This document shows, piece by piece, positions 18,743 to 49,107 of a stretch of 64,000 bases of DNA. Source of the stretch: Escherichia coli (GTDB lineage: Bacteria; Pseudomonadota; Gammaproteobacteria; Enterobacterales; Enterobacteriaceae); assembly GCF_024223415.1 (NCBI RefSeq), contig NZ_CP100500.1. One strand, 5' to 3'. Under the pieces are notes generated by a model. That model was given only the letters and a program-made list of their open reading frames with translations. It had not been told where the DNA came from and did not search any database. The position numbers and the translations under genes are program-made. Within the stretch, counting starts at the first letter, position 1; each line of letters begins with the position of its first letter.

Positions 18743-20857
18743 TCAGTCAGCCACTAATAGCGGACTAGGGACACCAGATGATGAAACAAACAGCCCTTTT
18801 ACGGCACGGGTTGCAGCCACATGCAGTAACGCGCGCTCATTAAATAATGCATCACGCTGTTCAACGGGATCATCGGATGCTAATGCTTTTATTTCCGGCA
18901 CAACGCCTTCGTTAATCCCCACCAGGAACACATACTGGAACTCAAGCCCTTTAATACGGTGCATCGTTGCAACCCGCACGCCAGGGCGTGCATCGCTGTC
19001 ACCGCTATCATTGCCTAAATTAAATGTCTCAATTCCGGCGTCATTCAGTGCTGATGCGTAGCGGTCACAAGCATGTTTAGTACGCGCAGTAATGCAGATA
19101 TCCTGAGAACGAACCTGATTCGCCAGCAATGCCTGAATTTGCTTGACGAGCGTTGCAGCCTCTTCTTTGAAATCTGCCGCATGCGTAATCATGGGCTTTT
19201 CCCCGTGCAGTAATGACAAATAATCATTACTGGTATCCGCTTCGCCATCGAGGTTATCAACCTTCACACCAGTTAACAGCCCAACAGCAAATTGACGCGT
19301 CTCTTCTGTGGTCCGATAGTTAATCTTCAATTTTTTACTGCGACGACCACGGACGTTAATACCACACTGACCAAGAACGACCTTATTGCGATAAATACGC
19401 TGATGCCCATCCCCGACAATAAACAGATCGTTGGGCGACTCGGGAACCAGGCTGCGAATAAGAGTAAATGCCGGGGCACCGATATCTTGAGCTTCATCGA
19501 CCACAATACTGCTATAAGGTAGTTGGACCTGCTTTTCTTTAAACAGAACAATAGCCTCATGCATGGCATCGCCCATTTCGCGCAGTTTGGCACGCGCCAT
19601 TTGTGCTCTGAATTCTTCAAAGACTGGCCAGATTTTCGCCCGTTGAATACGGGATAACGCTGTACCACGTCCAACCCGGCTGACTTTGAGGTATTCCTCC
19701 CGGGTGTAAACCGCATTTGGCTGGACAACGCGTTGCCACTCTTCAGCATAGAAATTATCAGGTAGCCCCAGTTCGGCAGGTGCCTGCTGCAAGGCATAGT
19801 TCCAGCATTTGCGTCGCCCTTCATCGCTGTCGTATACCACGCGGAAATCATAACCGTGGCGTTTTAGTTGGTCGCTCATCCAGGCATCAATGTTAACGAC
19901 GTCAATACGCGCCATCTCTTCTCGCGTACACAACCGCTGGAGATTAGCGCGAATATCTGCCGCCAGGTTACGCGTAAAGGTCGTGAAAAGTACCTTCTTA
20001 CCGGGTTTATCTGCCAGACGCTGAGATAACCACCGCGCACGGTGCATCGCAACAACCGTTTTCCCTGTACCTGCACCGCCCAGTACTCGTACCGGACCAT
20101 TAGCGGGCGACTCCACCAGTTTTCGCTGGCTCGGATGCAGAAATACACGCCATTTTTCTAAAGGCGCATTAAGCATCTGCAACAGCTCCTGTTCATTTTC
20201 AACGACATGGAAGCGACGTTTACTTCGTTCAATCGCCTCCATAAAGTCGTTGGTATCAACAGGCTCATCACGATGATCGTTAAACTCTTCCAGCACTTCC
20301 TGGTAATCCAGCCCTTCTGCCAGCCAGTGCAGAGGTTCCCAGGCTTCTGCTGGCATTATGCTTTCAAGTTGGTTAAGCCCGGCTTCATCGGTAAGCGCCA
20401 TCACCTGATCAATAAAGACAGGCGGCACGCCCAGGGCCAGAATCTGTTCCGCGCTGTAAGCCGCGAAGAGTTTCGGTTTATCAACCACCGCTTCCGGTGC
20501 CGGTTTGATATAGCTAATATCAATAACCTGAATCGCGCCGGTAACTGGGTGAATCGAACAATCATGCCGCCGCGCCCAGTCGTATGCTTCGTCGTGTTTA
20601 TCCACCCACATCAGCATATACAGGGCACCCTGTTCAGGTTTCAGAACAATGCCGCGATAAGTTTGATCGATTCGCACCGAATGGACATTTTTACTGCGCG
20701 CATCGTGGATCTTTTCATAGTTAAGTCCATTACTGGTCGGGTCCTGACGGAATTTGGAGATGAATTCCTGCACCTTTTTTTGCTGTGCTTTTGGGATCCG
20801 CGCGAATGCGCCCAGAAAACCATCAGAAAGTGCCACCTTGGGCGTTTGCACCGTCAT
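18743..20857 (-). CDS. UvrD/PcrA-like superfamily-1 helicase with ~250-aa N-terminal extension (last gene of four-gene defence operon)
   Basis: Walker A VLGGAGTGKTVVAMHR, Walker B IVVDEAQDI, C-terminal motif VATMHRIKGLEFQYVFLVG. The start ATG overlaps the stop of the upstream 2113-aa gene (ATGA). Confidence 0.75.
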   Translation of the reverse strand: MTVQTPKVALSDGFLGAFARIPKAQQKKVQEFISKFRQDPTSNGLNYEKIHDARSKNVHSVRIDQTYRGIVLKPEQGALYMLMWVDKHDEAYDWARRHDCSIHPVTGAIQVIDISYIKPAPEAVVDKPKLFAAYSAEQILALGVPPVFIDQVMALTDEAGLNQLESIMPAEAWEPLHWLAEGLDYQEVLEEFNDHRDEPVDTNDFMEAIERSKRRFHVVENEQELLQMLNAPLEKWRVFLHPSQRKLVESPANGPVRVLGGAGTGKTVVAMHRARWLSQRLADKPGKKVLFTTFTRNLAADIRANLQRLCTREEMARIDVVNIDAWMSDQLKRHGYDFRVVYDSDEGRRKCWNYALQQAPAELGLPDNFYAEEWQRVVQPNAVYTREEYLKVSRVGRGTALSRIQRAKIWPVFEEFRAQMARAKLREMGDAMHEAIVLFKEKQVQLPYSSIVVDEAQDIGAPAFTLIRSLVPESPNDLFIVGDGHQRIYRNKVVLGQCGINVRGRRSKKLKINYRTTEETRQFAVGLLTGVKVDNLDGEADTSNDYLSLLHGEKPMITHAADFKEEAATLVKQIQALLANQVRSQDICITARTKHACDRYASALNDAGIETFNLGNDSGDSDARPGVRVATMHRIKGLEFQYVFLVGINEGVVPEIKALASDDPVEQRDALFNERALLHVAATRAVKGLFVSSSGVPSPLLVAD

Positions 20858-23800
20858 TTGTCACCTCCGGACAGATGTTGCAATGTATTTTCGTCAATTG
20901 GCCCGAATGCAACGTGCCAACCTCTGGTTGTGAATAATGGAATAAATTCTTGATTATCAATAATCAATGCCCATTTTTGTGATGGCCAGGCGAGATCGGC
21001 TTCCGCAATAATTTCACCTTCATCATTTTGCAATTCGTAGCCGAGAGTCGGCGCAGAGAGAGAATGAGACTGAAGCAACGCGATCTCTTCAGCGCTTAAT
21101 AAGCCAAACTCAATAATCTCAGCCCAACTCTCATCAGTCTCTGGTACTGCCTCTGGCGTTGCCGAAACTTTAGTGTCAACGCTTTCCTGCGGTAAATGCA
21201 CGGCTTTACGGCTGGTAAAGGTCATATCCGGCAGGAACTGTAACAGGTTTACCAGTCGCCAGAAGCCATTGAGTCCCGCTTCATAACCGTCATCCTGCGT
21301 ATAGCGATCGTCAAAACAGATATGCAAACGCAGCCAGCTGCGCATTTGTGCGACGCTGGTCGTCGGTTTAATGGCTTGTTGTGGCAACACCGAAGCCAGC
21401 TCAATAAATTGCTGCGATGAGTTACAGCTATCGAGTAAACCACCAAAGACAAACGGTTCGTCTGGCAAAAGCTCTGCTAGCCGCCAGGCTGGCGCGTTTT
21501 CCTGCATTTCATAGGCATACTTTTGTTTCGTTCCCGCGTCCTGTGACTTCTTCACATCCAACCACACCCAGGCATGTGCAGCAGCCATTCTCTGCCATAA
21601 CTGCGTTCTTCCGCCCGGATCGGCGAGATAATCCAGCAGCAGTGCAAAACTGTTGCGTTCCCGGAACGACGCTTCAAGGGCCGCAAAGTTGGTATCGTGA
21701 AACAGGTTATAAAACTTAGGCTGTTTCATATCCGGGTTATGCCCAAGTCCCAGGACATCCTGAACATGTTTAAGCCCAGGCTCTTTGAGATCGGCCCACG
21801 TGACTGTCCACACCCAGAAATTACCGCTATCCCGAATCGCCTGGCGTTTTTGCACATCCTCTGCGACGCTATTTTTGTGGAACGCAAAGCCATCAAGGAA
21901 AATAGCCACCGGTTTAATGACATCAGACTGCATAAGCGGATATAGCACGTAATCCGGGCGACAAGGGATCCCCACCGCCTCTTTAGCGCCTAAATCCACC
22001 TGAGCTTTAAGATGCCAGCTCATCATCGGTTCGCTGCGGGTGTTAATAATCCACCCAGCGCCCTGATGCGCGTAACTGCGACTGACAATCAGGTTTTTAT
22101 TTTCTTGCAGGCAGCTAATAAACCGTTTTTCCAGCTCACTGCCCATCATGGCTTCGAGGGAAATGTTTTTGATGGAATCAATTACCCGTATCGAATCTCT
22201 TGCCTGCAAAATTTTCGCCAGCAAGAGACGCGCCTGATCGCGGGAGACATACTTCATGCGCCCACGGTCACGGTAAGCGTAAACGCAACGATAACAACCA
22301 TCTTTATGCGTATCATTGTTGCAACTGCATTCCACTATTGCCTGATAGGCCAGTTCAAGTAATTTCAGCAAATTGTCGGGAGTGCGCATCAGCTCTTTAA
22401 GAGAACCAGTTCCCCCCGGGACGGTATCGTAAATCACCAGATACTGCCTCCAGGATTCGCCTTCATTTTCCGGCTCGCGGTACACAACGCCTTTCAGGTG
22501 ATCGACATTCCCCTTGAAGTAATGTTTAAGGCCGAGCTGGATCGCCGCCCCAAGAGAAGCCTCCACGACACGGTCATTACTGTAACTGCTTACCGGGAGC
22601 AGAATACGCAACGCTTCTGACTCCAGCTGGCGATAGAGATAGAGATAATCTTCGAACTTCGCCTTTTCCGGTTCCGTGCGATATTTGCAGCTCAAATCAT
22701 GACGTGGTTCATGATCGCGAGGACGCTGCACCATGCCGCACCCGAGGCAAACTTTAAACCCGGTTCGCTTCTTCGCTTCTCCGGCAATCATCAACTCATT
22801 GGCATCATCCGCCATTTTGCCGAAGTTGATATCCCGCAGGGTGACTTTGCTTAAAAATTCAAAACCAAACGGAACTTCGCCTTCCTCAATCGCGTATGCC
22901 GCCGATACATCTTCTTTTTCGAAACTAACCAATAGCTGACGCTGGAAGAAAGCAGGTTCACGGCTGTCGCTATCGTCGCTGATCTGGCTATCACGTGCGC
23001 TGGCGCGGGCATAAACCTGGCGAAGTTTCAGCAGCGTGGTTTTTTGTCCGGCATCGGCCCACCCCGGTGTGCCACATTTCGGGCAATATTTATGCTGGTC
23101 GCCCGTCTGGTCGATATTTTCGCTGTAGTTACAGTGGCTACAGATACGCCAGTTCTCCGGCTCAGAGACCTTCAGGTCTATCTGCTCAATTTCAACTTTA
23201 TGCCCACCGGCATAGAAATTATTCAGCGGAGCCAGCTCAGCCAGCGCCGTTGATGCCGGGCGTTCATATTCGAAAGTGGTGTTTTGATATTCACGCGCTT
23301 CCCCGCCTTCTTTACGCCGCCAGAGCACAGAACGTAACGTAATACCGGCTTCCGGGAAGGCGTAGTTAGGCAGCAGACCTTCATCCGTGAGGAAATTCAG
23401 CGTTTGCTTATTGTTGATTTGATTGACCAGCGCCATCAGCGCCTGCCGTTCTGAAGTCAGTTCGCGCATATCGCTGTCAAAGTTTTGATCGCGCGGCGCG
23501 TTCTCCAGTTTATCGATGCTGCGCTTGAGTTTATCGATGCGTGAGCGCAAAGATTTGCGATCTTCCACCAGCAGTTTTAACGCTTCTTCGATACGCTGCA
23601 CCAGCGAACGTTGCCCTGGCGCGCCCTGAAGATAAGACAACAGCTGTTGGCGAGTTTCTGCGGCAAGATCGGGGAAGATCGCCGTAAATTGTGCAGCAAT
23701 CTCCGCATGATGCTGTTCGATATATCGCAGTAAGTTATACGGAAAACCCGATTTACGCCCGAACTCCAGCTCATCCAGCATCTGTTTGACGTTTTTACAG

Positions 23801-26800
23801 ATAGCGGATTCTGGTACACCGGTTTTCACCCAGTTATCCATACAAAAAGCTGCCAGCTGGCGTTCGAGAATAGCCGTTGCATTGAGGAAGACGCCAGGAG
23901 CCTGCACCTGGCCCTGCATCATCTCCAGCGGTTCTTCAAAGAAAAACTGATCGTGCGGGTTCCCTTCTGCCACGGTAATGTTTAACGCGTTACCATCTTT
24001 ACGACCGGCGCGACCAATACGCTGCAAGTAGTTGGCCTGAGCAGGTGGGACAGAACAGAGTAAAACGGTGGAAAGATCGCCAACGTCAATACCCATCTCC
24101 AGCGTCGGTGTTGCCGACAACAGGTTGATATTCCACGGTTGGTTGCCGCGGTAGAACGATTTTTCGGTGGCTTCGCGATCTTCACGGCTAAGCAGCCCCG
24201 TGTGTTCTGCGCCCTGTACGCGCGCGATGTCCATGTTCTCCCAACGCCAGGTCGCCGTATTGTCGACTTCCTGGTAACGACCTTCACAACGTAAAGAGAG
24301 ACAAGGCGCATTACGCCACTGCCAGCCTTGATCGGCCGGAGCCCGGACAACCTCACGGCAACATGAACAATTAAGCTGAACGACGTCACGGCTCACCACC
24401 AGCGCCGAAGGCACCAGTCCCCAGGCTTCACGCCCTTTGGTGTCAAAATCTTTTACTACTCCGGCTATTTTCAACGCCGTAAACAGGCGTCGTAACACTG
24501 TTTCCGCAACGCTACTGATAAACAGATTATTGCCGTTACTCAGCGTGCGATTGATCCAATGCTGATACCAACTGGGGTTAGACTTCGCGCCAATCAGGCG
24601 ATGGAAACCATTAATTTTTTCAAACGACGCATAAGCCGGTTTACGCGTTTTCGGACCGATAGAAGGCATATAGCGCGAGGTACGCTCTTTTTGCGTCATC
24701 ATAAAGGTCGTGCCATCACGGCGATAACTTTCGAACGCCGGATGCATAACGGCCCCGGCCTGGCGTTGATACCAGATAACCCCCAGCGCCAGGTGCGCGA
24801 CCTGCTCGACGCTCACACCGGACATCTCATCACCCAGCTCTTCACAAAGCTGTTGATGCAGGGCGGTAATTGCCGGATTAAAGCGTTCTTTATCCACTCC
24901 GGCAACGGCATAACCGGTGGCTTCCAGCGTACGTCCGATACGCGCGCGCAGGGTGAATTCGCTGTACACCTCCCAGTCGAGGCGCAGGGAAACCAGCTCC
25001 GGCAGATCGGAGTTCTCCGCCAGTTTGCCTTCATTTTTCAGCATCTGATAATCATTCAGCCACTGCATATTTGGTGCGATGAAGTTCGCTGCAAAATGAG
25101 CATCGTCCGGTGAACGTTCACGCGTTTGTTGGCAAACACGCGCCGCGAACGCATCCAGCGGTAATGTCTCTTTTTCGCCAAGAACACTGGCGATTTGCCC
25201 ACGAATCATCAGCGGCCAGGTACGGGCAGTAAAGAAGCTGGCACGATGCGCGGCGTCTTGTACCGAGTCAGAAAACGTAATCAGCTTTTTATGTTCGTTG
25301 AACTGGCTGCCATAAAGCTGGTGAATCATCACCGCCGACAAACTGGCAGCCCGTGACCCCAGGATCGAAATCCCCTGTTTGCTGTTGCAGTACGGGCATT
25401 CATTAGCAAACTCCAGCTCGTCCTTACGCTCTTTGAGCATATCCGGGATCAGTACCTGCAACAGTTCCGTATGACCGCAATGTCCACACTGGACGCTGGA
25501 CTGTCGGTTCAGTTTCAGACAGGTAGGACACAGTTTCTGGTGTGCGCCACTGACCGCTTTTTCGTTGTTATCCGGGAAAGCAAGGACGATGGAGCGTCCT
25601 TTTTCAAAGAACTGGCGATAAATGCCGTCGAGGTCTGTTTCCAGCTGAACGCTTTGCCCATGACGCAGGCTGGCCCAGCCAGTTGCGTGGCAGTCACGGC
25701 AGTGGATAACCGGCAAATAGTGTTCGCGATCTTCCACCGCCACATCATCGGCAAACACCAGTCGGGGCGTTTTCGCCACGCTGGCGACCAGACGACGCAT
25801 CTCACGAAGCCACAACTGGGAGCGCAGTTGCACAAACGGCAGCACCGGACGCGCTTTCTTCGCCTGGAGACGTTTTTGCCGATCGTGTTCCGTTTCCGGT
25901 ACTTCGAGACGTGCCTGTGCGATCAGCGCCAGAATGCTTTGCAGCACGCGTCGGGCATGGTCGGCGCTTTCTGCCAGCATGACCTGGAGATTTTCCAGAC
26001 ACTCTCGTTCAGAGAGGATCCCGCCTTGCAGATCATGGAGTAAGACATGCATCACGCTGTGGCGGCGTAACAGTGACCCCAGCGCAATACGCTTTTCACG
26101 CCCGTCGTCGCTCTCCAGATCGTCCGGGAGTTGCAAGTCGCTGTCGGGGAACCACAAAGGGATTTGCCCGTTAAGATACGCTACCGGGGTAGCGTAACTC
26201 TGCGGGTCCAGGGCCGAAGCGACCTCCGGCCCCGGATACTGACTGTACGCAATGGCGTAATCCTGCAAGTACTCCGCTGCCGTGTAGCGATCTTCGCGAA
26301 TAACGGCGTCATCGGTAAACGGCTGGTCAAAGATTGTTTTTGCGTAATCGAGCAGTTGCCCCAGCTCGTCGCCGACGGTAGCTGATGTCCCGACGCAGGC
26401 GAATCGTTGGTTATCTACACCTATGTGATGCTTCAGACGTCGCACCAGACAGGCCAGATCCGACCCTTGCGCGCCATCAAACGTATGCAATTCATCCACG
26501 ACCAGGTAACGCAATGAACCGGGCTGGTTGTAACGCCAGAGCGGCTGATCGCCAGGGCGCATCAGCAGGTAGTCGAGCATTTTGTAGTTGGTCAACAGGA
26601 TGTCCGGCGGGCTTTCGCGCAGCGTGTGCTTGCAGGTAATGACCTTTTCTGCCGACATTTTTTTGCTGGGTTCGATTTCGCTGTCGCCGACAAACAGGCC
26701 GACGGTCACCTTGCCATGCAGTTGTGTATCGCTGGCGATGGTTTTGGCGAAACGGCTGGCCTGATCGGTTGCCAGGGCGTTCATCGGGTAGATGATAATC

Positions 26801-27195
26801 GCTTTAACCCCGGCTTGTGACGCGCCCGCGCAGTGGTTGAGCAGCGGGAACATAAAGCATTCTGTTTTACCGGAGCCGGTACCGGTAGCAACCAGCGTCG
26901 GCTGTGGCGCGTCGCTTCCCAGACGCTGAAATGCCCGGGCCTGATGCGCGTGCGGCGGGAACGGCAGCGTCAGATTAGGGAAGAAATTCAGCGGTAAGTC
27001 ACTTTTACGAAACGGCAACTGGGCGGAAAGGTATGGTCCTTTCAGCAGCGTTTCGGGCTGGGCCAGAAATTGCTCCAGCATTGAGACATTATCGTTATTC
27101 TCACCGTTAAACAGCGGACTGTTTAGCGGGAACGCCGCCCGTAAAAAGGCGGCAACGCTGTCGGCGACCTGCCGACTGACAACGGATGGCAGCAT
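20854..27195 (-). CDS. 2113-aa DEAD/DEAH-box helicase with Cys-rich DUF1998-like region (DrmA+DrmB-like or DruE-like giant helicase)
   Basis: Motif I ATGTGSGKTECF, motif II VVDELHTFDG, motif VI QRIGRAGRKDG about 800 residues later, then CxxC clusters (CSHCNYS…CPKCG, CLGCG, CSCNND…CYRCV). C-terminal PDYVLYP…IFLDGFAFH patch might be a nuclease-like fold. Confidence 0.7.
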   Translation of the reverse strand: MLPSVVSRQVADSVAAFLRAAFPLNSPLFNGENNDNVSMLEQFLAQPETLLKGPYLSAQLPFRKSDLPLNFFPNLTLPFPPHAHQARAFQRLGSDAPQPTLVATGTGSGKTECFMFPLLNHCAGASQAGVKAIIIYPMNALATDQASRFAKTIASDTQLHGKVTVGLFVGDSEIEPSKKMSAEKVITCKHTLRESPPDILLTNYKMLDYLLMRPGDQPLWRYNQPGSLRYLVVDELHTFDGAQGSDLACLVRRLKHHIGVDNQRFACVGTSATVGDELGQLLDYAKTIFDQPFTDDAVIREDRYTAAEYLQDYAIAYSQYPGPEVASALDPQSYATPVAYLNGQIPLWFPDSDLQLPDDLESDDGREKRIALGSLLRRHSVMHVLLHDLQGGILSERECLENLQVMLAESADHARRVLQSILALIAQARLEVPETEHDRQKRLQAKKARPVLPFVQLRSQLWLREMRRLVASVAKTPRLVFADDVAVEDREHYLPVIHCRDCHATGWASLRHGQSVQLETDLDGIYRQFFEKGRSIVLAFPDNNEKAVSGAHQKLCPTCLKLNRQSSVQCGHCGHTELLQVLIPDMLKERKDELEFANECPYCNSKQGISILGSRAASLSAVMIHQLYGSQFNEHKKLITFSDSVQDAAHRASFFTARTWPLMIRGQIASVLGEKETLPLDAFAARVCQQTRERSPDDAHFAANFIAPNMQWLNDYQMLKNEGKLAENSDLPELVSLRLDWEVYSEFTLRARIGRTLEATGYAVAGVDKERFNPAITALHQQLCEELGDEMSGVSVEQVAHLALGVIWYQRQAGAVMHPAFESYRRDGTTFMMTQKERTSRYMPSIGPKTRKPAYASFEKINGFHRLIGAKSNPSWYQHWINRTLSNGNNLFISSVAETVLRRLFTALKIAGVVKDFDTKGREAWGLVPSALVVSRDVVQLNCSCCREVVRAPADQGWQWRNAPCLSLRCEGRYQEVDNTATWRWENMDIARVQGAEHTGLLSREDREATEKSFYRGNQPWNINLLSATPTLEMGIDVGDLSTVLLCSVPPAQANYLQRIGRAGRKDGNALNITVAEGNPHDQFFFEEPLEMMQGQVQAPGVFLNATAILERQLAAFCMDNWVKTGVPESAICKNVKQMLDELEFGRKSGFPYNLLRYIEQHHAEIAAQFTAIFPDLAAETRQQLLSYLQGAPGQRSLVQRIEEALKLLVEDRKSLRSRIDKLKRSIDKLENAPRDQNFDSDMRELTSERQALMALVNQINNKQTLNFLTDEGLLPNYAFPEAGITLRSVLWRRKEGGEAREYQNTTFEYERPASTALAELAPLNNFYAGGHKVEIEQIDLKVSEPENWRICSHCNYSENIDQTGDQHKYCPKCGTPGWADAGQKTTLLKLRQVYARASARDSQISDDSDSREPAFFQRQLLVSFEKEDVSAAYAIEEGEVPFGFEFLSKVTLRDINFGKMADDANELMIAGEAKKRTGFKVCLGCGMVQRPRDHEPRHDLSCKYRTEPEKAKFEDYLYLYRQLESEALRILLPVSSYSNDRVVEASLGAAIQLGLKHYFKGNVDHLKGVVYREPENEGESWRQYLVIYDTVPGGTGSLKELMRTPDNLLKLLELAYQAIVECSCNNDTHKDGCYRCVYAYRDRGRMKYVSRDQARLLLAKILQARDSIRVIDSIKNISLEAMMGSELEKRFISCLQENKNLIVSRSYAHQGAGWIINTRSEPMMSWHLKAQVDLGAKEAVGIPCRPDYVLYPLMQSDVIKPVAIFLDGFAFHKNSVAEDVQKRQAIRDSGNFWVWTVTWADLKEPGLKHVQDVLGLGHNPDMKQPKFYNLFHDTNFAALEASFRERNSFALLLDYLADPGGRTQLWQRMAAAHAWVWLDVKKSQDAGTKQKYAYEMQENAPAWRLAELLPDEPFVFGGLLDSCNSSQQFIELASVLPQQAIKPTTSVAQMRSWLRLHICFDDRYTQDDGYEAGLNGFWRLVNLLQFLPDMTFTSRKAVHLPQESVDTKVSATPEAVPETDESWAEIIEFGLLSAEEIALLQSHSLSAPTLGYELQNDEGEIIAEADLAWPSQKWALIIDNQEFIPLFTTRGWHVAFGPIDENTLQHLSGGDK

Positions 27196-30100
27196 CAGGC
27201 GTTCTCCTTATCTTGTGCAAAGAACGCCCAGGCCACTTTGTAGTCGTCTTCGCGATCTGGCTTGATAAACGGAGCCTGCCAGGTGACGGTGCGGCGCTCG
27301 CCTTCGTCGCTGCGGGTATAGTCATCAAAGGTGACGCTGACGGTACCGGTTTTCAGATGTTTGACATCATCCCAGCCGATGGCTTGATCGGTGCAGTCAC
27401 CGCCGGTCCACTCCGGGCTGTCGACGTTAAAGACAAAGCTGTTTTTCAGATCAGCTTTACGGGCGGTACGCGGCAGACCGACGCCCACCAGCCCTTTGCT
27501 TGGGGTAAAGATGATGCGGCCGTTTTGGTCGTACCAGGTGTCCGCTTCGTACTGGCGCATCACCGGGAACTGTACACGGTAAATGGTAAGCAGCTCTTCG
27601 AGAGTTAACCCCAGCGCCTGTGCCACCAGCACGTCGATTTCCACCAGCGCCTGACGACGACTGTAGTCGGAGCGTAAGGCGCAGTTACGCTGCCACTCTG
27701 GGGTCAGATTGGTGAAGAAATCTTGTGGCAGCAGCGGGAGATCGCGGCTCCAACGCTGGGTGTTGAAGTCTGGGGTGTAGCAGGATTGCCAGAGATCGGC
27801 GTAATCTTTCGTTAACACATTCAAAGCTAATGCTCTTGAGTTTGCACTCATTAGCTCAACATAAGGGAAGCCACGCAATGTTGATTCATAAACATCCGCC
27901 CGTCCTGTTGTTTTCAAATAAAAATCAGCCACTATTGAATGGCAAAATGCAGAGAAACTTAGCAGGTTTATTGGCTCTCTAAATGTTGTTGAGAGTACAG
28001 GGTGTATATGAGCAACGTGCTTTGGAACTATGCTGGATATCATCGAGCGTTCTGATGATGCCCCAAACATTCTCCGATTAACAAAACGATAATAATCCGT
28101 CACCTTCCTCGGCTCGTCTTCATCCTGCTCTTTCCACGAAACCCGTGGGGTGCGCTTTGCATACTCCTGTGCATCACATGCCGGAATGTAGTTAGTTCGC
28201 GGCAGGTAATCGTCGGGCAGGGTTAATAAATCAAGGCAATCATAATGGCTATTTGCCTCACAGAGAGCTCTTGGTGTCTTATTGAAAGGATTACCCACGA
28301 AGAAATGGGGACCAGACAATACCCATTGAGAAGCATCTTTTGGATACATTGTTTTACGCTCGATAGTGCCATCAATTTGCTGATTTGTTTCATGCCACAT
28401 TTCCAGAGAAAAATACTGGCCTTGCAAATCGCCTAATCGCTTCGGCTGATTGGCAAATTTTTCCAATACCGCGACAAGTTGCTCTGCGTGCAAAGCGGGA
28501 AGACGAGCCTGTAATGCTGGCGTGTCGGGTTCATCATACAAACGAGCAAATAAAGCTAGCTGCTCTTTCGTGACACGAATAAGCCTGGATTTATGACCTT
28601 TAGTATTCCATCGGCTATAGTAAACATCTTTTATATAACCTTCTTCCTTAATGCCACCAACCAATCCATCACCTGAATGCTCAAAACTCTCATCAAGAGT
28701 TGAAGGAATAAAAAGATTATTAATATTAATAAACTCCACGTCGTTCGATTTGGTCATAGAGTAAACATGTGTCCCAAATTTCATTCGACCGTGATCATTT
28801 GTTCCAACAAATAGAGAAAACTCATTTTGATATTGGCAATGTAGACGTAACCTTGGATAGATCTCTTCTCTGAAGAGCCCTCCCTTAGGATCGTCATATA
28901 CCCCCTCTGGGTGAACAAATCCTGCCACGCCTTTCTCTGCCCCCAGACGCCAGGCCTGAGGCAGGAAGCATTTATACAAGTTGGTCTGCACCCCGCGCAG
29001 TACCGGGTAGTTTTGCTGCGCATTGAGGAAGTTTTGCATCCCTTCACAGCCTTCATACTCGCTGCGCCAGGCCGCTTCCAGCGCCGGGATCTGGTTAAAG
29101 GTATCAATACGCAACGTTGCCAGCTTCGATGCACTCAGCTTACGCAGCACAAATTCCGGCTCGTAATCACCCAGCACGCCCGCTTCCTGCCATTCCACTT
29201 TCAGCCACGGCGGGTTTCCGAGCATCAGGTCAAAACCGCCGCGCTCGGCAAACAGGTCGCAGAACTCCAGATCCCAGTGGAAGAAACGGTGCTGCTTTCT
29301 CAGGGCATCGACAATCGCCAGACGCGGCAAATGGCGGAACAGCACATCGGTTTTCAGACGACCAGCAACGGAAAACAGCGAAGACTCTTCTCGCAGCAGG
29401 CCTTCTTCGGCAAACAGATCGCCAGTAGTGCGCTCCGCAACTTCAGTGACTTTTTCCGTAATCACAATCCCGTCGAGCAGGGTTTCAATCTCAAACAACC
29501 AGGTACCGCGATCCGGTAACTCATCGGCTTTGTCGATCGGCCAGAACCACAGCGCGCACCAGTAGTCCATCACCCAACGCAGCTTCTGGTAGGCGCTGTT
29601 ATCTTCAAGACGACCGCTAAAGGTTTCATCTTTACTGCTCAGCGAAGAACGCGTCTGCTCGCTGTTTTCTGCCGGCCACACCGGGTAGCTGTCGGCGGTT
29701 TTCAGACGTTCTGCTTTAAGTTGCTGGCGATAGGTGTTCCACAGTGCTTCCACCTTTTCGCTGATACGCTGCACATCAGCAATCTCATGCCCGGCAAAGC
29801 TTTTAATAAACTCTTTGCGCCAGCTGTCCAGCGCTTTGAAGTCATCCGGATAACGCTGCTTAACAGTTTTATCGCTGTAGTTAGCCATACCGCCGTCGGG
29901 CAGCAGGAAGTGGAAAATCTGCGTCTCTTCACGCGGCGTGTTCATCGCCAGTTCGACCGGCTCGCTGTTAAGCCAGCTAGGATCTTTGGCTTTTTTGTAG
30001 GTCAGTTCGCTCTTGTTGAACACCTGACGGCGCGCGCCCACCAGCGAGTTACCGCAGTGCAGCTGGTAACCAAACCACGGTACAAAGGCATCGCCACTGA

Positions 30101-32126
30101 TGGCGTTCAGCCACAGCGACACTTCCGCCAGCTCCACCGCCACCGGGTTTAAGTCCACGCCGAAAACATTGTTATCGGCAATGTACATTTTCACCCGCTG
30201 TAACTCCTGGGTGTAACGATCCTGCGGAATACGGCGACCTTCCGCCTGCTGCTTGTGGAACAGATACGCTTCCGCCAGCTGGTTGATGGCTTCGTTAAGG
30301 AACGCCGCGCTGCCCATCGCCGGTTCGCACACAGTGAGGTTTAAGATGGCGTCGGCTTTGGCGTGCGGATCGCTAATGGGATCAATCTGCTCCTTAAACA
30401 GTTCTTTCAGGGCATATTTAACCAGTGAGCGGGTCAGCACTTCCGGGGTGTAATAAGAGGCAGATTTCTCACGGTCGCGCCCGGCCATACGGTAGATAAA
30501 GCTGCCTTTGCGGTGAATGCGCAGACTGCCGTCTTTCTCGTAGACCTTCTCGTCTTCGTGGTATTTGCCAATCTCATCCTTACTGACGAAGTAACCTGTC
30601 TCCAGCTCGTTAAACTCTTCCCCGGCTTTCTTCACCTCGTAGAGATCTTCGCTGGCGAAGAATCCACGATAGGAGAGCAGCGCCTCATACACCGCACCCA
30701 ACTGGTTGATACCCAACTGGCGATAAGAAATACGTCCGCGGCGGTTAAAGCGCCCTTTGGCCGGGCGGCTTAACGACATCGCCTGGATAATCTGTTGCAG
30801 GGTTTCGTTACGGAATACCACGCGGTTAAGAATGCGCGTGTTGTTGGCATCAAACAGATGACTTTCCAGACGCGGGACGCTGAACTGATGACTATGGATG
30901 GTGATCCGGTCGCCGCTCTCCAGGTCACTCTGCATTTTCACGCCGCCGTTGTAGCCTTCGCGCACCAGTTTAAACAGCATATTCAGGCTGTCGTGGAAGT
31001 AGCGCCCGTTGCGATCTTCTTCGCTGGTCAGCGGGATCATCTCCAGATCGCGCAACGTTTCCAGACTGTAACCTTGCAGATAGGTTTTGGCTGTCATTGG
31101 CGCATAACCCAGCTCCGGGCGCGCTTCAATGTAGAACAGGAACAGCAGGCGGTACATGTAACGCAGACATTCGCGGCTCAGTTCATCCGGGTCCACCGCA
31201 CGGTTACCGGTATAGTTTGCCAGGCCACGGTCGATCAGATAATGCATCGCTTCGTTGCCCAGCAACTCAATGCTTTCGCGCAGGGCATATTTCAGATCTT
31301 CCGAAACACCAAACGCATGTTTGTGCGAATTGTCATCCAGCGAGTCAAGATAAGGTGCCCCACTGCCCGGCAGCAGAGAATCTTTATGTAACAACACCGC
31401 AGTCGCTTTCAGCGTATCCGTTTCACGACGGCTTAAAATCTCTTCAAAATCAAAACGTAGCAGACGGTTTTGCGCCCACTTAGTACGGTCCAGCAGCAAT
31501 AGCTGACGGTTACCGAGCAGCAGCACAAAACGCGGCGGTTCATTTTGGGTGAAGACCGCCGTAGAGAGCAGATCCTGCCAGCTGCGATATTCACCGTTGG
31601 CTTTTTTGCGCAGGCTGTCGCGCTTATGTTTGTCGGTATCCGCCGGGAATTGCGCGGTCAGTAAGGAGAGCGCCAGCGGATCCAGCGTTCCTTCTTCCTG
31701 ATCGTGTGCTTCAACAATCCACAGCCACGGGCTACCGTCAGTGCTGTTGTAACGCGCCAGTACCGGCAGCGGTGTATCGTCATCCAGCATTTGGATCTGT
31801 GGCGTAATTTCGTAGCCCAGCGCCTTTAACAATGGCTGCCAGCGATTACGTTGATCGGCCAGACGCTGCGGGATCTGACGCTGTTTTTCGTGCTCGGCAA
31901 GTTTGCGGAAAAACTCAGTCGCCAGACTGTTAAACTGGTTCCACGGAGCGCGGTATCCCGGCTCCACGTCTTTGCCCTGTTCACGAGCGGCACGCTCCGC
32001 TTCACGCGCTGCATTTTCCTTGGCTATCCAGGGTTCCAGCACATCGCGGATATCACTGGTGAAAACCTCACCCAAATAGTGGTTAGAGTAAAATTCGTTT
32101 TCGTTATTAATACCGACCAGCGCCAT
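27195..32126 (-). CDS. 1643-aa N6-adenine DNA methyltransferase (gamma-class; DrmMI/PglX-like)
   Basis: SAM-binding motif I …CEPAMGSAAFL… and catalytic motif IV …LGNPPWLKVEW… (NPPW). Its stop overlaps the start of the 2113-aa gene. Confidence 0.8.
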   Translation of the reverse strand: MALVGINNENEFYSNHYLGEVFTSDIRDVLEPWIAKENAAREAERAAREQGKDVEPGYRAPWNQFNSLATEFFRKLAEHEKQRQIPQRLADQRNRWQPLLKALGYEITPQIQMLDDDTPLPVLARYNSTDGSPWLWIVEAHDQEEGTLDPLALSLLTAQFPADTDKHKRDSLRKKANGEYRSWQDLLSTAVFTQNEPPRFVLLLGNRQLLLLDRTKWAQNRLLRFDFEEILSRRETDTLKATAVLLHKDSLLPGSGAPYLDSLDDNSHKHAFGVSEDLKYALRESIELLGNEAMHYLIDRGLANYTGNRAVDPDELSRECLRYMYRLLFLFYIEARPELGYAPMTAKTYLQGYSLETLRDLEMIPLTSEEDRNGRYFHDSLNMLFKLVREGYNGGVKMQSDLESGDRITIHSHQFSVPRLESHLFDANNTRILNRVVFRNETLQQIIQAMSLSRPAKGRFNRRGRISYRQLGINQLGAVYEALLSYRGFFASEDLYEVKKAGEEFNELETGYFVSKDEIGKYHEDEKVYEKDGSLRIHRKGSFIYRMAGRDREKSASYYTPEVLTRSLVKYALKELFKEQIDPISDPHAKADAILNLTVCEPAMGSAAFLNEAINQLAEAYLFHKQQAEGRRIPQDRYTQELQRVKMYIADNNVFGVDLNPVAVELAEVSLWLNAISGDAFVPWFGYQLHCGNSLVGARRQVFNKSELTYKKAKDPSWLNSEPVELAMNTPREETQIFHFLLPDGGMANYSDKTVKQRYPDDFKALDSWRKEFIKSFAGHEIADVQRISEKVEALWNTYRQQLKAERLKTADSYPVWPAENSEQTRSSLSSKDETFSGRLEDNSAYQKLRWVMDYWCALWFWPIDKADELPDRGTWLFEIETLLDGIVITEKVTEVAERTTGDLFAEEGLLREESSLFSVAGRLKTDVLFRHLPRLAIVDALRKQHRFFHWDLEFCDLFAERGGFDLMLGNPPWLKVEWQEAGVLGDYEPEFVLRKLSASKLATLRIDTFNQIPALEAAWRSEYEGCEGMQNFLNAQQNYPVLRGVQTNLYKCFLPQAWRLGAEKGVAGFVHPEGVYDDPKGGLFREEIYPRLRLHCQYQNEFSLFVGTNDHGRMKFGTHVYSMTKSNDVEFININNLFIPSTLDESFEHSGDGLVGGIKEEGYIKDVYYSRWNTKGHKSRLIRVTKEQLALFARLYDEPDTPALQARLPALHAEQLVAVLEKFANQPKRLGDLQGQYFSLEMWHETNQQIDGTIERKTMYPKDASQWVLSGPHFFVGNPFNKTPRALCEANSHYDCLDLLTLPDDYLPRTNYIPACDAQEYAKRTPRVSWKEQDEDEPRKVTDYYRFVNRRMFGASSERSMISSIVPKHVAHIHPVLSTTFREPINLLSFSAFCHSIVADFYLKTTGRADVYESTLRGFPYVELMSANSRALALNVLTKDYADLWQSCYTPDFNTQRWSRDLPLLPQDFFTNLTPEWQRNCALRSDYSRRQALVEIDVLVAQALGLTLEELLTIYRVQFPVMRQYEADTWYDQNGRIIFTPSKGLVGVGLPRTARKADLKNSFVFNVDSPEWTGGDCTDQAIGWDDVKHLKTGTVSVTFDDYTRSDEGERRTVTWQAPFIKPDREDDYKVAWAFFAQDKENA

Positions 32127-32128
32127 GA

Positions 32129-34987
32129 TTAACCCTCCGCTCCGGTGATAACAGCAATTACCTGAATGTAGGGTTCTTTTTCAGTCGTCATGGTGTCCTC
32201 AATCCATTCGATATAGCTGTCAAAATTGTGTTCGATTTCGCGTTGTCTCTGCTCTTTACGGCTCTGCTTGACTGACAATTGCTGTTTGTTATCGGCAAAA
32301 TCCAGCTCAAGTTGGCTCAACTGCCGCCCACGCAAAACGTCCAGCTTTTGCAGATGCTCATTCAGTTGCTGGTTAATGTGCGTTTCAAACGCATTCCGAT
32401 CATGGATGAATACCTCCCGGGCATGAGCAATAGCCGCTTCAAGTAAATCCTGCTGGCGTTGGTGATTACGATCTTTACCGCCGCTGTTAGTCAGCTTGTT
32501 ACTCAACTGCGGATGACGTTGTAAAAACTCAGCGAATGGCTGACTGCCGATTAGCGATTCACGGTTAAAGCTCACCACTATCCACGGGTTCACCATCGGA
32601 TGTGATTTACGGTTCGGGAATAACCCGGAAAGAATGAAGTGATCTTCATCGGGTTCAAGCAGGTATGGCAGACGGATAACTGGTGCCTGATGACGACCAA
32701 AAGCCGAAGAGATTTTATCGTCCAGCCACTGCACTACCGGGTTGATTTGCCAGAGATACTGCACATCGGGCCAGGCATGTTGCTCACCGCGAGCGCGCGC
32801 AATCGCGTCGGTGATGACGGTTTTATCCTGACTTAAATAGAGCTGCCAGTTCTCCGGGGCAATTTCAGGCGGTAGCTGGTTGAAGCGGCGGCGTAACTCC
32901 TCCGGAGCCACCAGCGACAAGGTATTATCAGGCAAGGTTTCATACTGGATAGTTTGACCACTGGCTTTCAGGTAACCCAATGCTCTTTCGCAGTACGCCT
33001 GTTCGCTGGCAAACAAGCTGGTGTCTGCTTCGGTGACCATTGAGGCATCGCTGGAAACCGCACTGCATATTTCGCCAAACAGATCGTGTTCGGCGCTTTC
33101 CGAGACGTTGCTGTTCAGCAGTTGATCAAACAGGCTGGCACCATCATCCTGCATCATGAACTCTGCAACCTGCTCTTCTTCCTCTTCCTGGGTAAATTTG
33201 CCGGTAAACTCCGAACTGTCCCCAATGTTCTTCTGCGCCTGTTCGTCTTTGTTGATCAACACTTCCAGTACGCGCATATCGCCATTGATCTGTGGTTCGC
33301 TGGCCTCAGTAAGCAGATAGCGGATTTGAGGCTGATGTTTTTGCCCATAGCGGTCAATACGCCCGTTACGTTGCTGGAATACCATCAACGACCACGGAAT
33401 ATCAAAGTGAATCATTTTGTGGCTAAGGTGATGCAGGTTGATCCCTTCAGATGCCACATCCGAACAAACCAGAAGACGCAACGGCGACTGCGTTTTACCA
33501 AAGGCTTCTACGGTTTCCATCAATACCGTATCGCCCTGATCGCCGCGCAGCGTGGCGATCTGGTCATCTTTCAATTTCAGATCCGCTCGCAGTTGCTGTT
33601 CGAGGAACTCCAGCGTTTTAATACTTTCGGTGAAGATCACCAGGCGATCTTCCGTGTTATTGGCTTTCCAGGCGAGGTCTTTTCGGATGGTGTCGAGCAG
33701 CAACTGGTATTTGCTAAACTGGCTGGCATCAATATTATTCAGCGCCAACAGCAATGACTCCAGTTCGTTGATCTGGCTCTGGCTATTATGATCTTTACGG
33801 CTCTCAAGACGCTTCAGACGATTCGCCACGACGCTGGCACACGCCATCGGGCTGGAAAATAGCGCTTTTTCGAGGGTTATCTTGAACAGACGACCTTTGT
33901 TAGACTGGGCCTGTTCATCGTCATCATCACGGAACTGGCTCTCAACCAGACGACGGTATGCTTCTTCTTCGGCACCGGATGCCAGGCGAGTCAATTTGAC
34001 AATATTGCGCTCGGGAAACTCGCCGGACATCTGATCTTTCACGTCTTTTTTGAAGCGACGGACAACCAGATTTTTATCGGCAAAGTCGGCGTATTCATAC
34101 TCTTTCGGGTTGGCGATCGCCGTCGGGTCAAGCATGTTCATCAGGCTGGCAAAACTTTCAGCCTTACCATCATGCGGCGTTGCTGAAAGCATAATCAGCG
34201 TATCGCTACGCCCGGCGAGCAGTTTTGCCAGTTTACTGCGTAACGAACTGGTTCCACGTTCTGCGACGTTATGGGCCTCATCAATGACAATAATATCCCA
34301 CCAGGCATTTTCCAGATGGTGACGATATTCAATGTCTTGTTTCAGCGTATCGATGGAGATAATGGTCTTGTCAAAATAGTGGAACGGGTTGTGGTTGGTT
34401 GGGATGCGGTTACGCACCTTTTGTAAACCAGCAGAATCCAGGCGGGTCAATGGGATCGCAAAACGGCTCCAGAACTCCTTCTGGAATTGTGTCAGCATCG
34501 ATTTGACCGCCAGAACCAGAATACGTTTTCCGCGCCCACGACGGATCAGCTCCGAAACCAGAATACCCGCTTCCAGTGTTTTACCCAGACCGACAGCGTC
34601 GGCAATGAGTATCCGCTGACGCGGTTGTGCCAGCGCCATCCGCGTAGGATCGAGCTGAAACGGCATGGAATCCATCGCCGCCAGATGACCAAAATGGACT
34701 TTACTGTCTGTCGGTACGCGTTGGCGTAACTGACTTTCGATATACAACTGCGCCGCTTGATAATTGGCGGATTCATCTTCCACCAAATGCGTTTTTGCGG
34801 GATCCAGGATCTCTACTTTTTGTTCCAGTTTGGTCAGAAATAACCCTTCTTTACCGCGCACAAGCTCTGAAATACCATCGCAGGTCAGCAAATACCCACC
34901 ATCACCACTGTCATCCGCCCGGCGAATACGCCATTCGGCATCACGAATAACCACCCGCATACCAGGTGCATAATTTTGCTTATTCAT
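32129..34987 (-). CDS. 952-aa SNF2-family helicase (DrmD-like), first gene of operon
   Basis: SNF2 Walker A LIADAVGLGKTLEAG, DEAH box IIVIDEAHNV, motif III LMLSATPHDG, C-terminal helicase motif …FQQRNGRIDRYGQ. It ends 2 nt before the methyltransferase start. Confidence 0.85.
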   Translation of the reverse strand: MNKQNYAPGMRVVIRDAEWRIRRADDSGDGGYLLTCDGISELVRGKEGLFLTKLEQKVEILDPAKTHLVEDESANYQAAQLYIESQLRQRVPTDSKVHFGHLAAMDSMPFQLDPTRMALAQPRQRILIADAVGLGKTLEAGILVSELIRRGRGKRILVLAVKSMLTQFQKEFWSRFAIPLTRLDSAGLQKVRNRIPTNHNPFHYFDKTIISIDTLKQDIEYRHHLENAWWDIIVIDEAHNVAERGTSSLRSKLAKLLAGRSDTLIMLSATPHDGKAESFASLMNMLDPTAIANPKEYEYADFADKNLVVRRFKKDVKDQMSGEFPERNIVKLTRLASGAEEEAYRRLVESQFRDDDDEQAQSNKGRLFKITLEKALFSSPMACASVVANRLKRLESRKDHNSQSQINELESLLLALNNIDASQFSKYQLLLDTIRKDLAWKANNTEDRLVIFTESIKTLEFLEQQLRADLKLKDDQIATLRGDQGDTVLMETVEAFGKTQSPLRLLVCSDVASEGINLHHLSHKMIHFDIPWSLMVFQQRNGRIDRYGQKHQPQIRYLLTEASEPQINGDMRVLEVLINKDEQAQKNIGDSSEFTGKFTQEEEEEQVAEFMMQDDGASLFDQLLNSNVSESAEHDLFGEICSAVSSDASMVTEADTSLFASEQAYCERALGYLKASGQTIQYETLPDNTLSLVAPEELRRRFNQLPPEIAPENWQLYLSQDKTVITDAIARARGEQHAWPDVQYLWQINPVVQWLDDKISSAFGRHQAPVIRLPYLLEPDEDHFILSGLFPNRKSHPMVNPWIVVSFNRESLIGSQPFAEFLQRHPQLSNKLTNSGGKDRNHQRQQDLLEAAIAHAREVFIHDRNAFETHINQQLNEHLQKLDVLRGRQLSQLELDFADNKQQLSVKQSRKEQRQREIEHNFDSYIEWIEDTMTTEKEPYIQVIAVITGAEG

Positions 34988-38200: not shown

Positions 38201-38693
38201 CCCCCATCTCCATGGTCGTGGAACAGTTCAGCACATTAACTTTGCCTGACTTAAATTGTTTTTCATTAAACTGGTTCTGCTCAGGCGTTCTCTGCGCAGA
38301 GTGTTCCTCCAGACGATACCAGCTATCTTTCAGGGCCAGTCGGTCGCTGCGAGTAGACCATAATCCTTCCTCGCGGGCATGTTGAATCAGCGCATTACTT
38401 TCCAGCCACTCCAGACGTTCTTCTCGGGCGATTTCTCCACCACCAGACAAACGCCAGTGACGTACAGGAAGCTCAGGCATTTCAATCAACACTGCTTTTT
38501 CAGGTGCAATTTCTTTGCTACCCGGCAAATACGGAGAGTATCCCAGCAACGTGACGTCTAACGCACGTCGAGTATAGGGGCAACGCCACACTTGCTTTGG
38601 ACTGTAAAATTCAGCCTGTTGTTTAATATCCAGCTGATAACCCGACTCAAACTGACGTAAGCAGGGTCGAATTGCATCCCAGACCTCAATCAT
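35211..38693 (-). CDS. C-terminal segment (1160 aa) of a DruE-like giant helicase; frame open upstream to the A7 tract at 38830-38836
   Basis: Helicase motif VI …ANYLQRAGRAGRRGE… near its N-terminus (matching the C-terminal lobe of the upstream ORF), then Cys clusters (CRKCGAG…CSHCKAD, CLSCGRAES, CSCDKFCHHC). Architecture parallels the 2113-aa protein. Confidence 0.7.
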   Translation of the reverse strand: MIEVWDAIRPCLRQFESGYQLDIKQQAEFYSPKQVWRCPYTRRALDVTLLGYSPYLPGSKEIAPEKAVLIEMPELPVRHWRLSGGGEIAREERLEWLESNALIQHAREEGLWSTRSDRLALKDSWYRLEEHSAQRTPEQNQFNEKQFKSGKVNVLNCSTTMEMGVDIGGMSLVAMNNVPPAPANYLQRAGRAGRRGESASAAITLCKNTAHGMEVFKDPLWAFNTTASAPRVRFGSSSIVQRHVNALVLGLFLRAEVPDATKLSCKWFFEGDESQCLRFLHWLNHQADELADKLKRLTQGTVLKSLTATQLLTRTQAMMQQVDIRWRSQLAILLENIEALKADNSAWEETPAGKAIAYQLRDYRGAYLFSKLISEAFLPGHGFPVGVVNFNYLTADELEKRRAIKATQADPNEGGESFSRRIEKLPSRDLPTALREYAPGADVVLGGKVYRSSGIMLGKVLASGQELSGDHHIPWFWHCRKCGAGATSTTRPVECSHCKADIQQLDVKRYLQPVGFATDIRYQAHNDVSMPAQLPWKDPRVLVPSSVWVSLPDAGLGRYRFSHSGELFHFSEGEFGHGYAICLSCGRAESQTQPQRTPENLKNPERENTHYLLRGGSNDRQGSNKLCHGHVHKDLWLGYSSRTDMVELQLNDDNGLLIRDEVAARSLAVALREGLAHKLGIENTELGVTTQQARDINGYTGYSIFIYDNNAGGAGYAVQLIDHWADVFNYARKLLDCSCDKFCHHCLLSYDSQHYVNRLDRHHALTLLTNVRLQRLNLAPEYQYFGDGSRVETNPLSLRIAQCLNSEIYDSCSLVLAGPQEQWDFAQWPLFKELLQFASSGGNVELLVATPLENLTDSSRHQLSALAAMPGGRLQVKSIATAQLMQGKGRWLAQVTREGQSQQWAADDSATVAPGELWGQSASSPVVTLKGTSGKNFSGQTLSAEDLLPALPTGAVRINLCEQLDGPLEGFGSRFWSLVTQQHAGWKQAFTRHKEITHVEYSDRYLNSPFTARLLGEILTELVEQGMAERASLTVCVKKLDYNSRQHDALYNAWLNEEDRQQVVTTLLEEGYLGPAWPGAISWLTGDNQSTEHGRELTVTFSDGSQHYVLLDMGLSYWRCIEDTFFDFALRVPQQVERLANTRARAVAPGNDLRSYIIAG

Positions 38694-38755
38694 TAAGTGG
38701 TTAACTAACGATTTCCAGTGAGCCTGCTCAGGTTGTATTGCCGGAAAGACTGCGA

Positions 38756-47464: not shown

Positions 47465-48568
47465 ATGAAATTATCTATCGACCTTTCAGAACTTATTCAA
47501 TTAGGGAAGAAAATGTTACCAGAAGGAGTCGATTTTTTTCTGGATGAATCCCCTATTGACTTTGATCCTATAGATATTGAGTTATCCACGGGTAAAGAAG
47601 TTAGTATCGAAGATCTTGACCCTGGTAGCGGGCTTATCTCTTATCATGGCCGCCAGGTTCTTTTATATATTCGGGACCATTCAGGGCGTTATGATGCGGC
47701 TATCGTAGATGGCGAAAAAGGAAAACGTTTTCATATTGCCTGGTGCAGAACTCTTGATGAAATGCGCCATAAAAATCGATTTGAAAGGTATCATGCAACT
47801 AACCGCATAGATGGTTTATTCGAAATTGATGATGGTTCAGGTCGGAGCCAGGATGTTGATTTACGGGTATGTATGAATTGCCTCGAACGACTTAATTATA
47901 AAGGAAGTATTGATAAACAACGAAAAAGAGAGATTTTTAAATCATTCTCATTAAATGAGTTTTTTTCAGATTATAGTACCTGTTTTCGTCATATGCCTAA
48001 GGGTATCTATGACAAAACAAATAGTGGGTATGTCGAAAACTGGAAGGAAATATCTAAAGAAATACGAGAAAAGGCCAATTATGTTTGTAATGATTGTGGC
48101 GTGAATTTATCAACCGCCAAAAACTTGTGCCATGTCCATCATAAAAATGGCATCAAATATGATAATCACCATGAAAACCTTCTTGTTCTGTGCAAGGATT
48201 GCCATCGAAAACAGCCCCTCCACGAAGGTATATTCGTTACCCAAGCTGAGATGGCTATCATTCAACGTTTACGTTCCCAACAAGGGCTATTAAAAGCAGA
48301 ATCCTGGAATAAAATATATGACCTGACTGATCCATCAGTGCATGGTGATATTAATATGATGCAACATAAAGGCTTTCAACCTCCTGTTCCTGGGTTAGAT
48401 CTTCAAAACTCAGAACATGAAATTATTGCAACCGTAGAAGCTGCATGGCCAGGCCTTAAAATTGCAGTTAACCTTACTCCCGCCGAAGTCGAAGGATGGA
48501 GAATATATACCGTGGGTGAGCTGGTTAAAGAAATACAAACCGGAGCCTTTACGCCAGCAACTTTGTAA
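47465..48568 (+). CDS. zorE: Zorya type II effector ZorE-like HNH endonuclease
   Basis: HNH motif CNDCGVNLSTAKNLCHVHHKNGIKYDNHHENLLVLCKDCH. It follows zorB by 3 nt. Confidence 0.7.
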   Translation: MKLSIDLSELIQLGKKMLPEGVDFFLDESPIDFDPIDIELSTGKEVSIEDLDPGSGLISYHGRQVLLYIRDHSGRYDAAIVDGEKGKRFHIAWCRTLDEMRHKNRFERYHATNRIDGLFEIDDGSGRSQDVDLRVCMNCLERLNYKGSIDKQRKREIFKSFSLNEFFSDYSTCFRHMPKGIYDKTNSGYVENWKEISKEIREKANYVCNDCGVNLSTAKNLCHVHHKNGIKYDNHHENLLVLCKDCHRKQPLHEGIFVTQAEMAIIQRLRSQQGLLKAESWNKIYDLTDPSVHGDINMMQHKGFQPPVPGLDLQNSEHEIIATVEAAWPGLKIAVNLTPAEVEGWRIYTVGELVKEIQTGAFTPATL

Positions 48569-49032: not shown

Positions 49033-49107
49033 GGATCTTCACTTGCAGGCTTGAACAGCAGAAAATTTGCGAGCATGATCGCAATTATTTCACTGCCAGG
49101 GATATCA

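Follow-up and report, generated by a model that had tools for sequence, protein, structure and literature searches.

What does the giant open reading frame (ORF) within a 64,000-nucleotide stretch of an Escherichia coli genome (assembly GCF_024223415.1, contig NZ_CP100500.1; hereafter the window) encode, and does its product carry a nuclease of its own? The initial annotation described a helicase with a split core and, by eye, a possible nuclease-like C-terminal domain. The predicted protein has the same length as WP_000937974.1, the published ArmC, and is identical to it at 2104 of 2113 positions (99.57%); none of the nine substitutions falls at a motif, catalytic or cysteine position, and the exact window sequence is represented by WP_112037742.1. 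Because of this identity, because the same operon proteins occur in O157:H7 (the ArmA-D accessions of O157:H7 ATCC 43888 are those of Table S2 in PMC12458937), and because the numbering of K110 and D234 matches that of the published mutants, sequence comparison identifies the ORF as ArmC, the YprA/MrfA-family SF2 motor of the ARMADA type II anti-phage system.

The window is 99.97% identical to the chromosome of E. coli NCTC10444. At a nucleotide identity of at least 95%, armC is present in 525 of 5426 complete E. coli genomes, and its 90%-identity protein cluster has 3981 members, found in E. coli, Klebsiella, Salmonella, Citrobacter and Enterobacter. About one tenth of complete E. coli genomes, O157:H7 among them, carry ARMADA II and owe to it much of their resistance to phages. 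The four type II genes were named ArmA-D by Bell et al. 2025 (PMC12458937), who reported that the operon of E. coli NCTC 12900 defends its host, with no abortive infection, against 13 of 80 phages, that defence depends on each of the four genes, and that it is abolished by the K110A and D234N substitutions in an ArmC orthologue with 99.6% identity. Li et al. (10.1101/2025.09.22.677730) reached similar conclusions from deletions in EDL933, where armC was deleted and complemented. ArmC and its predicted Vsr-like nuclease were thus already described in a 2025 preprint (PMC12458937); since the same nuclease inference is found there, our reading of the domain is not novel, and the classification is unchanged.

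ArmC has the DEAD/DEXH RecA1, Helicase_C and MZB domains that characterize the YprA family. The Walker A (GTGSGKT) and DELH motifs are located where the initial annotation had placed helicase motifs I and II (near residues ~100-240), and motif VI (QRIGRAGRKDG) lies at residues 1058-1068, a small numbering shift from the ~1070 given there. A large insert does separate these motifs, although the two Pfam helicase halves are 714 rather than ~800 residues apart. In a Pfam scan of ArmC no family was found in residues 279-992 or 1639-2113; when modelled, the 714-residue insert appears to consist of winged-helix and zinc modules, with no nuclease among them. The cysteine pairs pointed out in the insert (CPTC at 556, CGHCGH at 570 and CPYC at 600) are real and not due to chance: across 59 full-length homologues with 32-51% identity, C499/C502/C600/C603 are 100% conserved and C556/C559/C570/C573 are 90-96% conserved. 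These are two of six conserved cysteine clusters, the others being a third Cys4 site of the insert (C943/C946/C965/C970), C1352/C1355/C1371/C1374 and C1483/C1486/C1503 in the region 1069-1548, and C1623, C1625, C1634 and C1637 in the MZB domain; the last three clusters are 100% conserved. BrxA-like, zinc beta-barrel and MarR-like inserts have been described as a common trait of the ARMADA-Druantia lineage (PMC12458937), and cryo-electron microscopy of DruE revealed insertion and stalk domains embedded in RecA2 (10.64898/2026.05.13.724313). Separately, C113, C122, C249 and C267 of RecA1 (26395-26859, minus strand) are 85-95% conserved among ArmC homologues and may form an additional metal or redox site.

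Among solved structures, the profile of ArmC homologues was most closely matched by DruE (9tu7, 6.5e-83), a second large helicase (9wae, 3.5e-47) and MrfA/YprA of Bacillus subtilis (6znp, 4.5e-36). MrfA, a 3'-to-5' translocase, shares with ArmC the DEXH RecA1, RecA2 and the OB-CON-DUF1998 canopy, but it is only 751 residues long, lacks both the RecA2 inserts and a fused nuclease (its partner MrfB is an exonuclease) and acts in DNA repair. DruE of Druantia III, encoded in the window 8 kb upstream of armC, is, like ArmC, a YprA-family SF2 helicase of ~2100 residues with domains in RecA2, multiple zinc modules, MZB and a C-terminal nuclease, which in ArmC is a predicted one. The similarity of their sequences is confined to the helicase and canopy parts, two PLD-like domains stand in DruE in place of the Vsr-like domain, and the partner of DruE is DruH, whereas those of ArmC are an SNF2 helicase, a methyltransferase and a UvrD-like helicase. 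Experimentally, DruE is an ATP-driven 3'-to-5' helicase-nuclease that acts at junctions of single-stranded DNA and duplex. The published ArmC agrees with the window protein in operon order, in the neighbouring Druantia III and Zorya II, in ATPase motif numbering and in the predicted series of RecA1, inserts, RecA2, OB-CON-MZB, Vsr-like domain and two further domains.

The tail that follows the DUF1998-type MZB domain, announced as ~500 residues long, comprises 475, of which only ~135 (about 1680-1810) are Vsr-like, with two more domains after them. An exhaustive HMMER search with residues 1640-2113 returned 948 proteins at E up to 0.001, and most of the top matches are ~2100-residue helicases aligned over the whole tail at 26-40% identity; a word-indexed homologue search returned only three partial proteins. 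AlphaFold, given a 30-homologue alignment, modelled three domains with confidence (predicted local distance difference test score 85.5): an alpha/beta domain at ~1680-1810, a mostly helical one at ~1821-1999 and, beyond a disordered linker, a small alpha/beta domain at 2022-2108.

We compared the tail with nuclease folds, as the initial annotation had proposed, and hhalign aligned the core motifs of Vsr (1cw0) with the first of the three domains, placing RPDYVLYP over RPDFVVDE and VAIFLDGFAFH over CVIFTHGCFWH. The two strings of the patch that had drawn attention by eye, PDYVLYP (1747-1753) and IFLDGFAFH (1765-1773), lie within these motifs, D1748 to H1773 being encoded by nucleotides 21877-21954. 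Residue roles in Vsr and in I-Bth0305I were taken from PMC3239194, and Vsr residues E25, D51, H64, H69 and D97 correspond to E1689, D1748, D1768, H1773 and D1780 of ArmC, the equivalences of E25 and D97 being set by motif register. All five ArmC residues are present in 114 of 114 aligned sequences at a background identity of ~30%, as are S1686 and G1769, and R1784 is kept in 113 of 114. Judged by sequence, the five-residue set is an EDxHD signature, and its invariance at such divergence is the pattern expected of an active enzyme. With the candidate active site narrowed to these five residues, a role of ArmC as the effector that cuts DNA becomes directly testable.

The proposed resemblance to Vsr/DUF559-type folds is supported, with a correction of the signature: the ArmC pattern F-[TL]-D-G-x3-H is closer to the FTHG...H of Vsr and to the EDxHD family than to the ExDG of DUF559, and no Pfam nuclease family (Vsr PF03852, DUF559) reached HMMER significance in residues 1640-2113 of ArmC or in 31 homologues. 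The published HHpred match of the tail nuclease has an E-value of 5.2e-5. Foldseek found no match of the tail in the PDB below E 0.1, the weak top ones being PD-(D/E)xK enzymes (BsmI, TnsA, R2 RLE), and when PDB sequences were searched with the tail by phmmer or by profile, nothing emerged beyond chance matches to Rad50 coiled coils. The closest nuclease comparisons are Vsr, I-Bth0305I (3r3p) and the DUF559 protein NGO0050 (3hrl). D1768 is an aspartate where Vsr has His64 and I-Bth0305I an asparagine. In the hhalign alignment the zinc site of Vsr is not kept: C66 falls over F1770, and the segment with H71 and C73 lies in a gap, the loop of ArmC being shorter. Because these zinc ligands are absent, we classify the domain, which has the alpha/beta core fold, as Vsr-like and not as a Vsr orthologue. 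It also differs from Vsr in lacking the mismatch-intercalating residues, in being fused to a helicase, and in an additional beta-sheet that is inserted after helix 1, ahead of the first strand of the core. The order of domains in the tail, a Vsr-type domain followed by degenerate ones, is that predicted in PMC12458937, where an "active Vsr" nuclease is followed by degenerate domains that are frequently, though not invariably, present. An internal duplication of the Vsr-like domain is not supported, since neither the middle nor the terminal domain of the tail gave an hhalign match to Vsr or to the first domain.

Taken together, we consider it probable, with considerable room for doubt, that ArmC is a helicase-coupled nuclease that cuts through its Vsr-like domain. 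ArmC would load through its RecA core on single-stranded DNA, or on junctions of duplex and single-stranded DNA, of the invading genome, with the winged-helix and zinc inserts and the OB-CON-MZB canopy guiding the strands. By analogy with MrfA and DruE it would translocate with ATP, probably in the 3'-to-5' direction, and the domain at ~1680-1810 would then cut or nick the DNA, leading to direct, non-abortive clearance. In the complex or pathway in which cleavage takes place, the ArmA and ArmD motors would be needed as well, and so would ArmB, whose methylation presumably marks self DNA. In this scheme the gene identity, the operon, the domain layout and the invariance of the catalytic set are our own observations; it has been published, for the 99.6%-identical orthologue, that defence is non-abortive and depends on all four genes and on the ATPase motifs of ArmC; and we infer the nuclease activity, its substrate, the polarity and the manner in which methylation is read.

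A different role for the same domain, which we regard as the less likely one by a clear measure but still worth serious attention, is that of a DNA-binding module that senses structure or modification, or of a regulatory plug, and phage DNA would then be destroyed by the N-terminal domain of ArmD, by host RecBCD, or by the neighbouring DruE or ZorE. We give this possibility weight because some related systems can do without their nuclease: DrmC is dispensable in DISARM, where no nuclease activity of DrmAB/DrmC was seen, and in one study of DruE the PLD domains were not needed in the assays used. ARMADA also acts in synergy with Druantia III, and the requirement for all three ATPases suggests that remodelling may be central. 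The suggestion that the operon has no other source of nuclease activity was correct in that it contains no PLD gene, but ArmD has been predicted to have an N-terminal RelE-like ribonuclease domain (HHpred E 0.0085), and the terminal domain of ArmC has a nuclease-like triad. However, ARMADA alone on a plasmid still protects in the absence of Druantia and Zorya (PMC12458937), and five catalytic-type residues invariant over 114 diverged sequences argue for an active enzyme, in contrast to the Vsr-like domains of DruE types I and II, which are described as inactivated (PMC12458937).

The triad of the terminal domain (residues 2022-2108) raises the further possibility that this domain, as a minimal PD-(D/E)xK-like module, is the catalytic nuclease of ArmC, either alone or together with the first domain. 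Its conserved residues are E2054, E/D2067, W2070, K/R2074 and G2092-W2093; positions 2054 and 2067 are each E or D in 108 of 114 sequences, and K/R2074 is kept in 97 of 114. The same acidic-acidic-basic residues are retained in ZorE, the C-terminal extension of which has been described as having a nuclease-like pocket, and a published table labels the terminal domain 'active? Vsr'. We nevertheless find this quite unlikely, as hhalign shows no similarity of the terminal domain to Vsr or to the first domain, its conservation is lower than that of the first domain, and the text of PMC12458937 describes the downstream domains as inactivated.

It is very improbable, and was ruled out by domain and operon tests, that the ORF is Druantia DruE or a fused DISARM DrmA-DrmB and not a component of a distinct system: ArmC does score on PADLOC models (DruE3 4.6e-104, DruE1 8.2e-97, DrmA 3.6e-14), and ArmA and ArmB resemble DrmD and DrmMI, but the true DruE of the island (two ORFs in the window) matches DruE3 at E = 0 and 4.5e-295, druH and druE are distinct genes upstream whose model scores are far stronger, the ArmC tail has no PLD match and its operon no DruH, DrmC, other PLD gene or separate DrmB, ArmA scores 349.9 bits on NCBIfam DISARM_DrmD (NF038317) against a cut-off of 610, and the published phylogeny (PMC12458937) places ArmC within the ARMADA II clade. 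ARMADA shares with class 1 DISARM an SNF2 helicase, an adenine methyltransferase and a YprA-like helicase with a DUF1998 module; in DISARM, however, DrmB (DUF1998) and the PLD protein DrmC are separate and there is no UvrD-like fourth gene, whereas in ARMADA the MZB domain is fused into ArmC.

In BLASTP the terminal domain of ArmC is 39% identical to ZorE over 57 residues (E 6e-8), and it matches the PADLOC ZorE2 model (5.9e-9) and the NCBIfam ZorE model (6.6e-5). A profile of ~100 ArmC homologues gave 46.9-48.1 bits against ZorE residues 279-353, with an hhalign probability of 97%. When this profile was run against all 470 ORFs of the window, only ArmC and ZorE matched, with nothing in DruE or DruH. 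The zorE gene lies 20 kb from armC in the same island, and an unrelated contig from a metagenome encodes, 7 kb from a pair of ArmC-like and UvrD-like genes, a ZorE that shares only 40% identity with that of E. coli and has the same terminal module (65.7 bits). From these sequence matches we draw the solid conclusion that ArmC, over its last ~90 residues, shares one homologous module with the C-terminal extension of ZorE, a part that has no assignment in the literature. The two ARMADA preprints and the paper on the ZorE extension make no mention of this link. It is conceivable, as a tentative idea to which we assign a low probability, that the common module couples the effectors of ARMADA II and Zorya II physically or functionally, for instance by forming a heterodimer or through a common DNA structure or factor to which both bind; the 'Druantia-associated' extension of ZorE would in that case really be linked to ARMADA.

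Table 1. Genes and protein features of the ARMADA II locus, with positions in the window; residue numbers refer to the protein named, or to ArmC where none is given.
Feature	Position	Strand	Description
armA	32129..34987	-	SNF2/RapA-like helicase, 952 residues; PADLOC DrmD 1.4e-99
armB	27195..32126	-	PglX/type IIG-like N6-adenine methyltransferase, 1643 residues; PADLOC REase_MTase_IIG 5e-289, DrmMI 5.6e-57
armC	20854..27195	-	Complete ORF, 2113 residues, ATG start
armD	18743..20857	-	UvrD/GajB-like helicase, 704 residues; PADLOC GajB 2.5e-36
RecA1/DEAD domain, residues 84-278	26362..26946	-	Pfam DEAD 2.6e-22
Walker A GTGSGKT, residues 105-111 (K110)	26863-26883	-	Motif position
D234ELH, residues 234-237	26485-26496	-	Motif position
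Insert between helicase halves, residues 279-992	24220..26361	-	Helical and winged-helix modules and zinc-binding beta module (predicted)
RecA2 C-terminal part, residues 993-1068	23992..24219	-	Pfam Helicase_C 1.2e-10 (993-1066); ends in motif VI
Post-RecA2 helical region and OB-CON of YprA 'canopy', residues 1069-1548	22552..23991	-	Domain names from PMC12458937
MZB/DUF1998 zinc-binding domain, residues 1549-1638	22282..22551	-	Pfam MZB 6.4e-13
Vsr-like (EDxHD-type) PD-(D/E)xK domain, residues ~1680-1810	21766..22158	-	Candidate residues E1689, D1748, D1768, H1773, D1780 (and R1784)
Middle tail domain, residues ~1821-1999	21199..21735	-	Mostly helical, small sheet, no fold assigned; conserved D1963, N1983, Q1986, F1987
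Terminal domain, residues 2022-2108	20872..21132	-	Small alpha/beta module
ZorE C-terminal extension, residues 279-353	48299..48523	+	Homologous to ArmC terminal domain

The four genes form a set of co-directional ORFs (34987..18743, minus strand) that abut or overlap in the order armA-armB-armC-armD; armC overlaps the stop of armB by 1 nt and the start of armD by 4 nt. This succession of SNF2 helicase, PglX-like methyltransferase, YprA-like helicase and GajB-like UvrD helicase is the one that defines ARMADA II, and the same four-gene order is found at the locus of a distant homologue (L004). ArmD, which differs from WP_000218177.1 by two substitutions, carries the Pfam domains UvrD-helicase (241-490) and UvrD_C, with no family assigned to its N-terminal ~240 residues. 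The Pfam Eco57I/MmeI_Mtase match of ArmB is weak. While ArmC and ArmD are more than 99.5% identical to their O157:H7 counterparts, ArmB is only 89.4% identical to the ArmB that accompanies the published ArmC, and 164 of the 174 differing alignment columns fall in residues 1050-1449, downstream of the NPPW motif. Probably the target-recognition region of ArmB (residues ~1050-1450) has been exchanged, and the specificity of methylation would differ accordingly.

Directly upstream of the ARMADA operon are druH and druE of Druantia III, and beyond them, on the opposite strand, zorA2-zorB2-zorE of Zorya II, an island that has been described in two 2025 preprints (PMC12458937; 10.1101/2025.09.22.677730). 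Compared with RefSeq NZ_LR134092.1, druE (35211-41533, minus strand) has a 1-bp deletion at ~38829 that splits it into ORFs of 925 and 1160 residues, and armA has a 1-bp insertion at 34386, the gene being intact here and a frameshifted pseudogene in the RefSeq annotation; these indels may reflect either differences between strains or sequencing errors in homopolymers. A 682-residue ORF (50603-52651, minus strand), situated between the island and the genes that flank it, lies in a stretch of low GC content (~34-42%) and has no NCBIfam match at E up to 0.1. In a metagenomic locus (L003, 10001-18613), a gene for an ArmC-like protein of 2138 residues is followed by a UvrD-like gene and, just downstream, by the end of the contig, and a PIN/antitoxin pair and small ORFs precede it in place of armA and armB; by its gene content, this locus may be a reduced or rearranged ARMADA variant. 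Adjoining zorE, the ORF at 48952-49980 (plus strand) matches the NCBIfam family of phosphorothioated-DNA-binding restriction endonucleases (NF045808, 1.3e-131), and by this match it is assigned as a fourth defence-type gene in the island.

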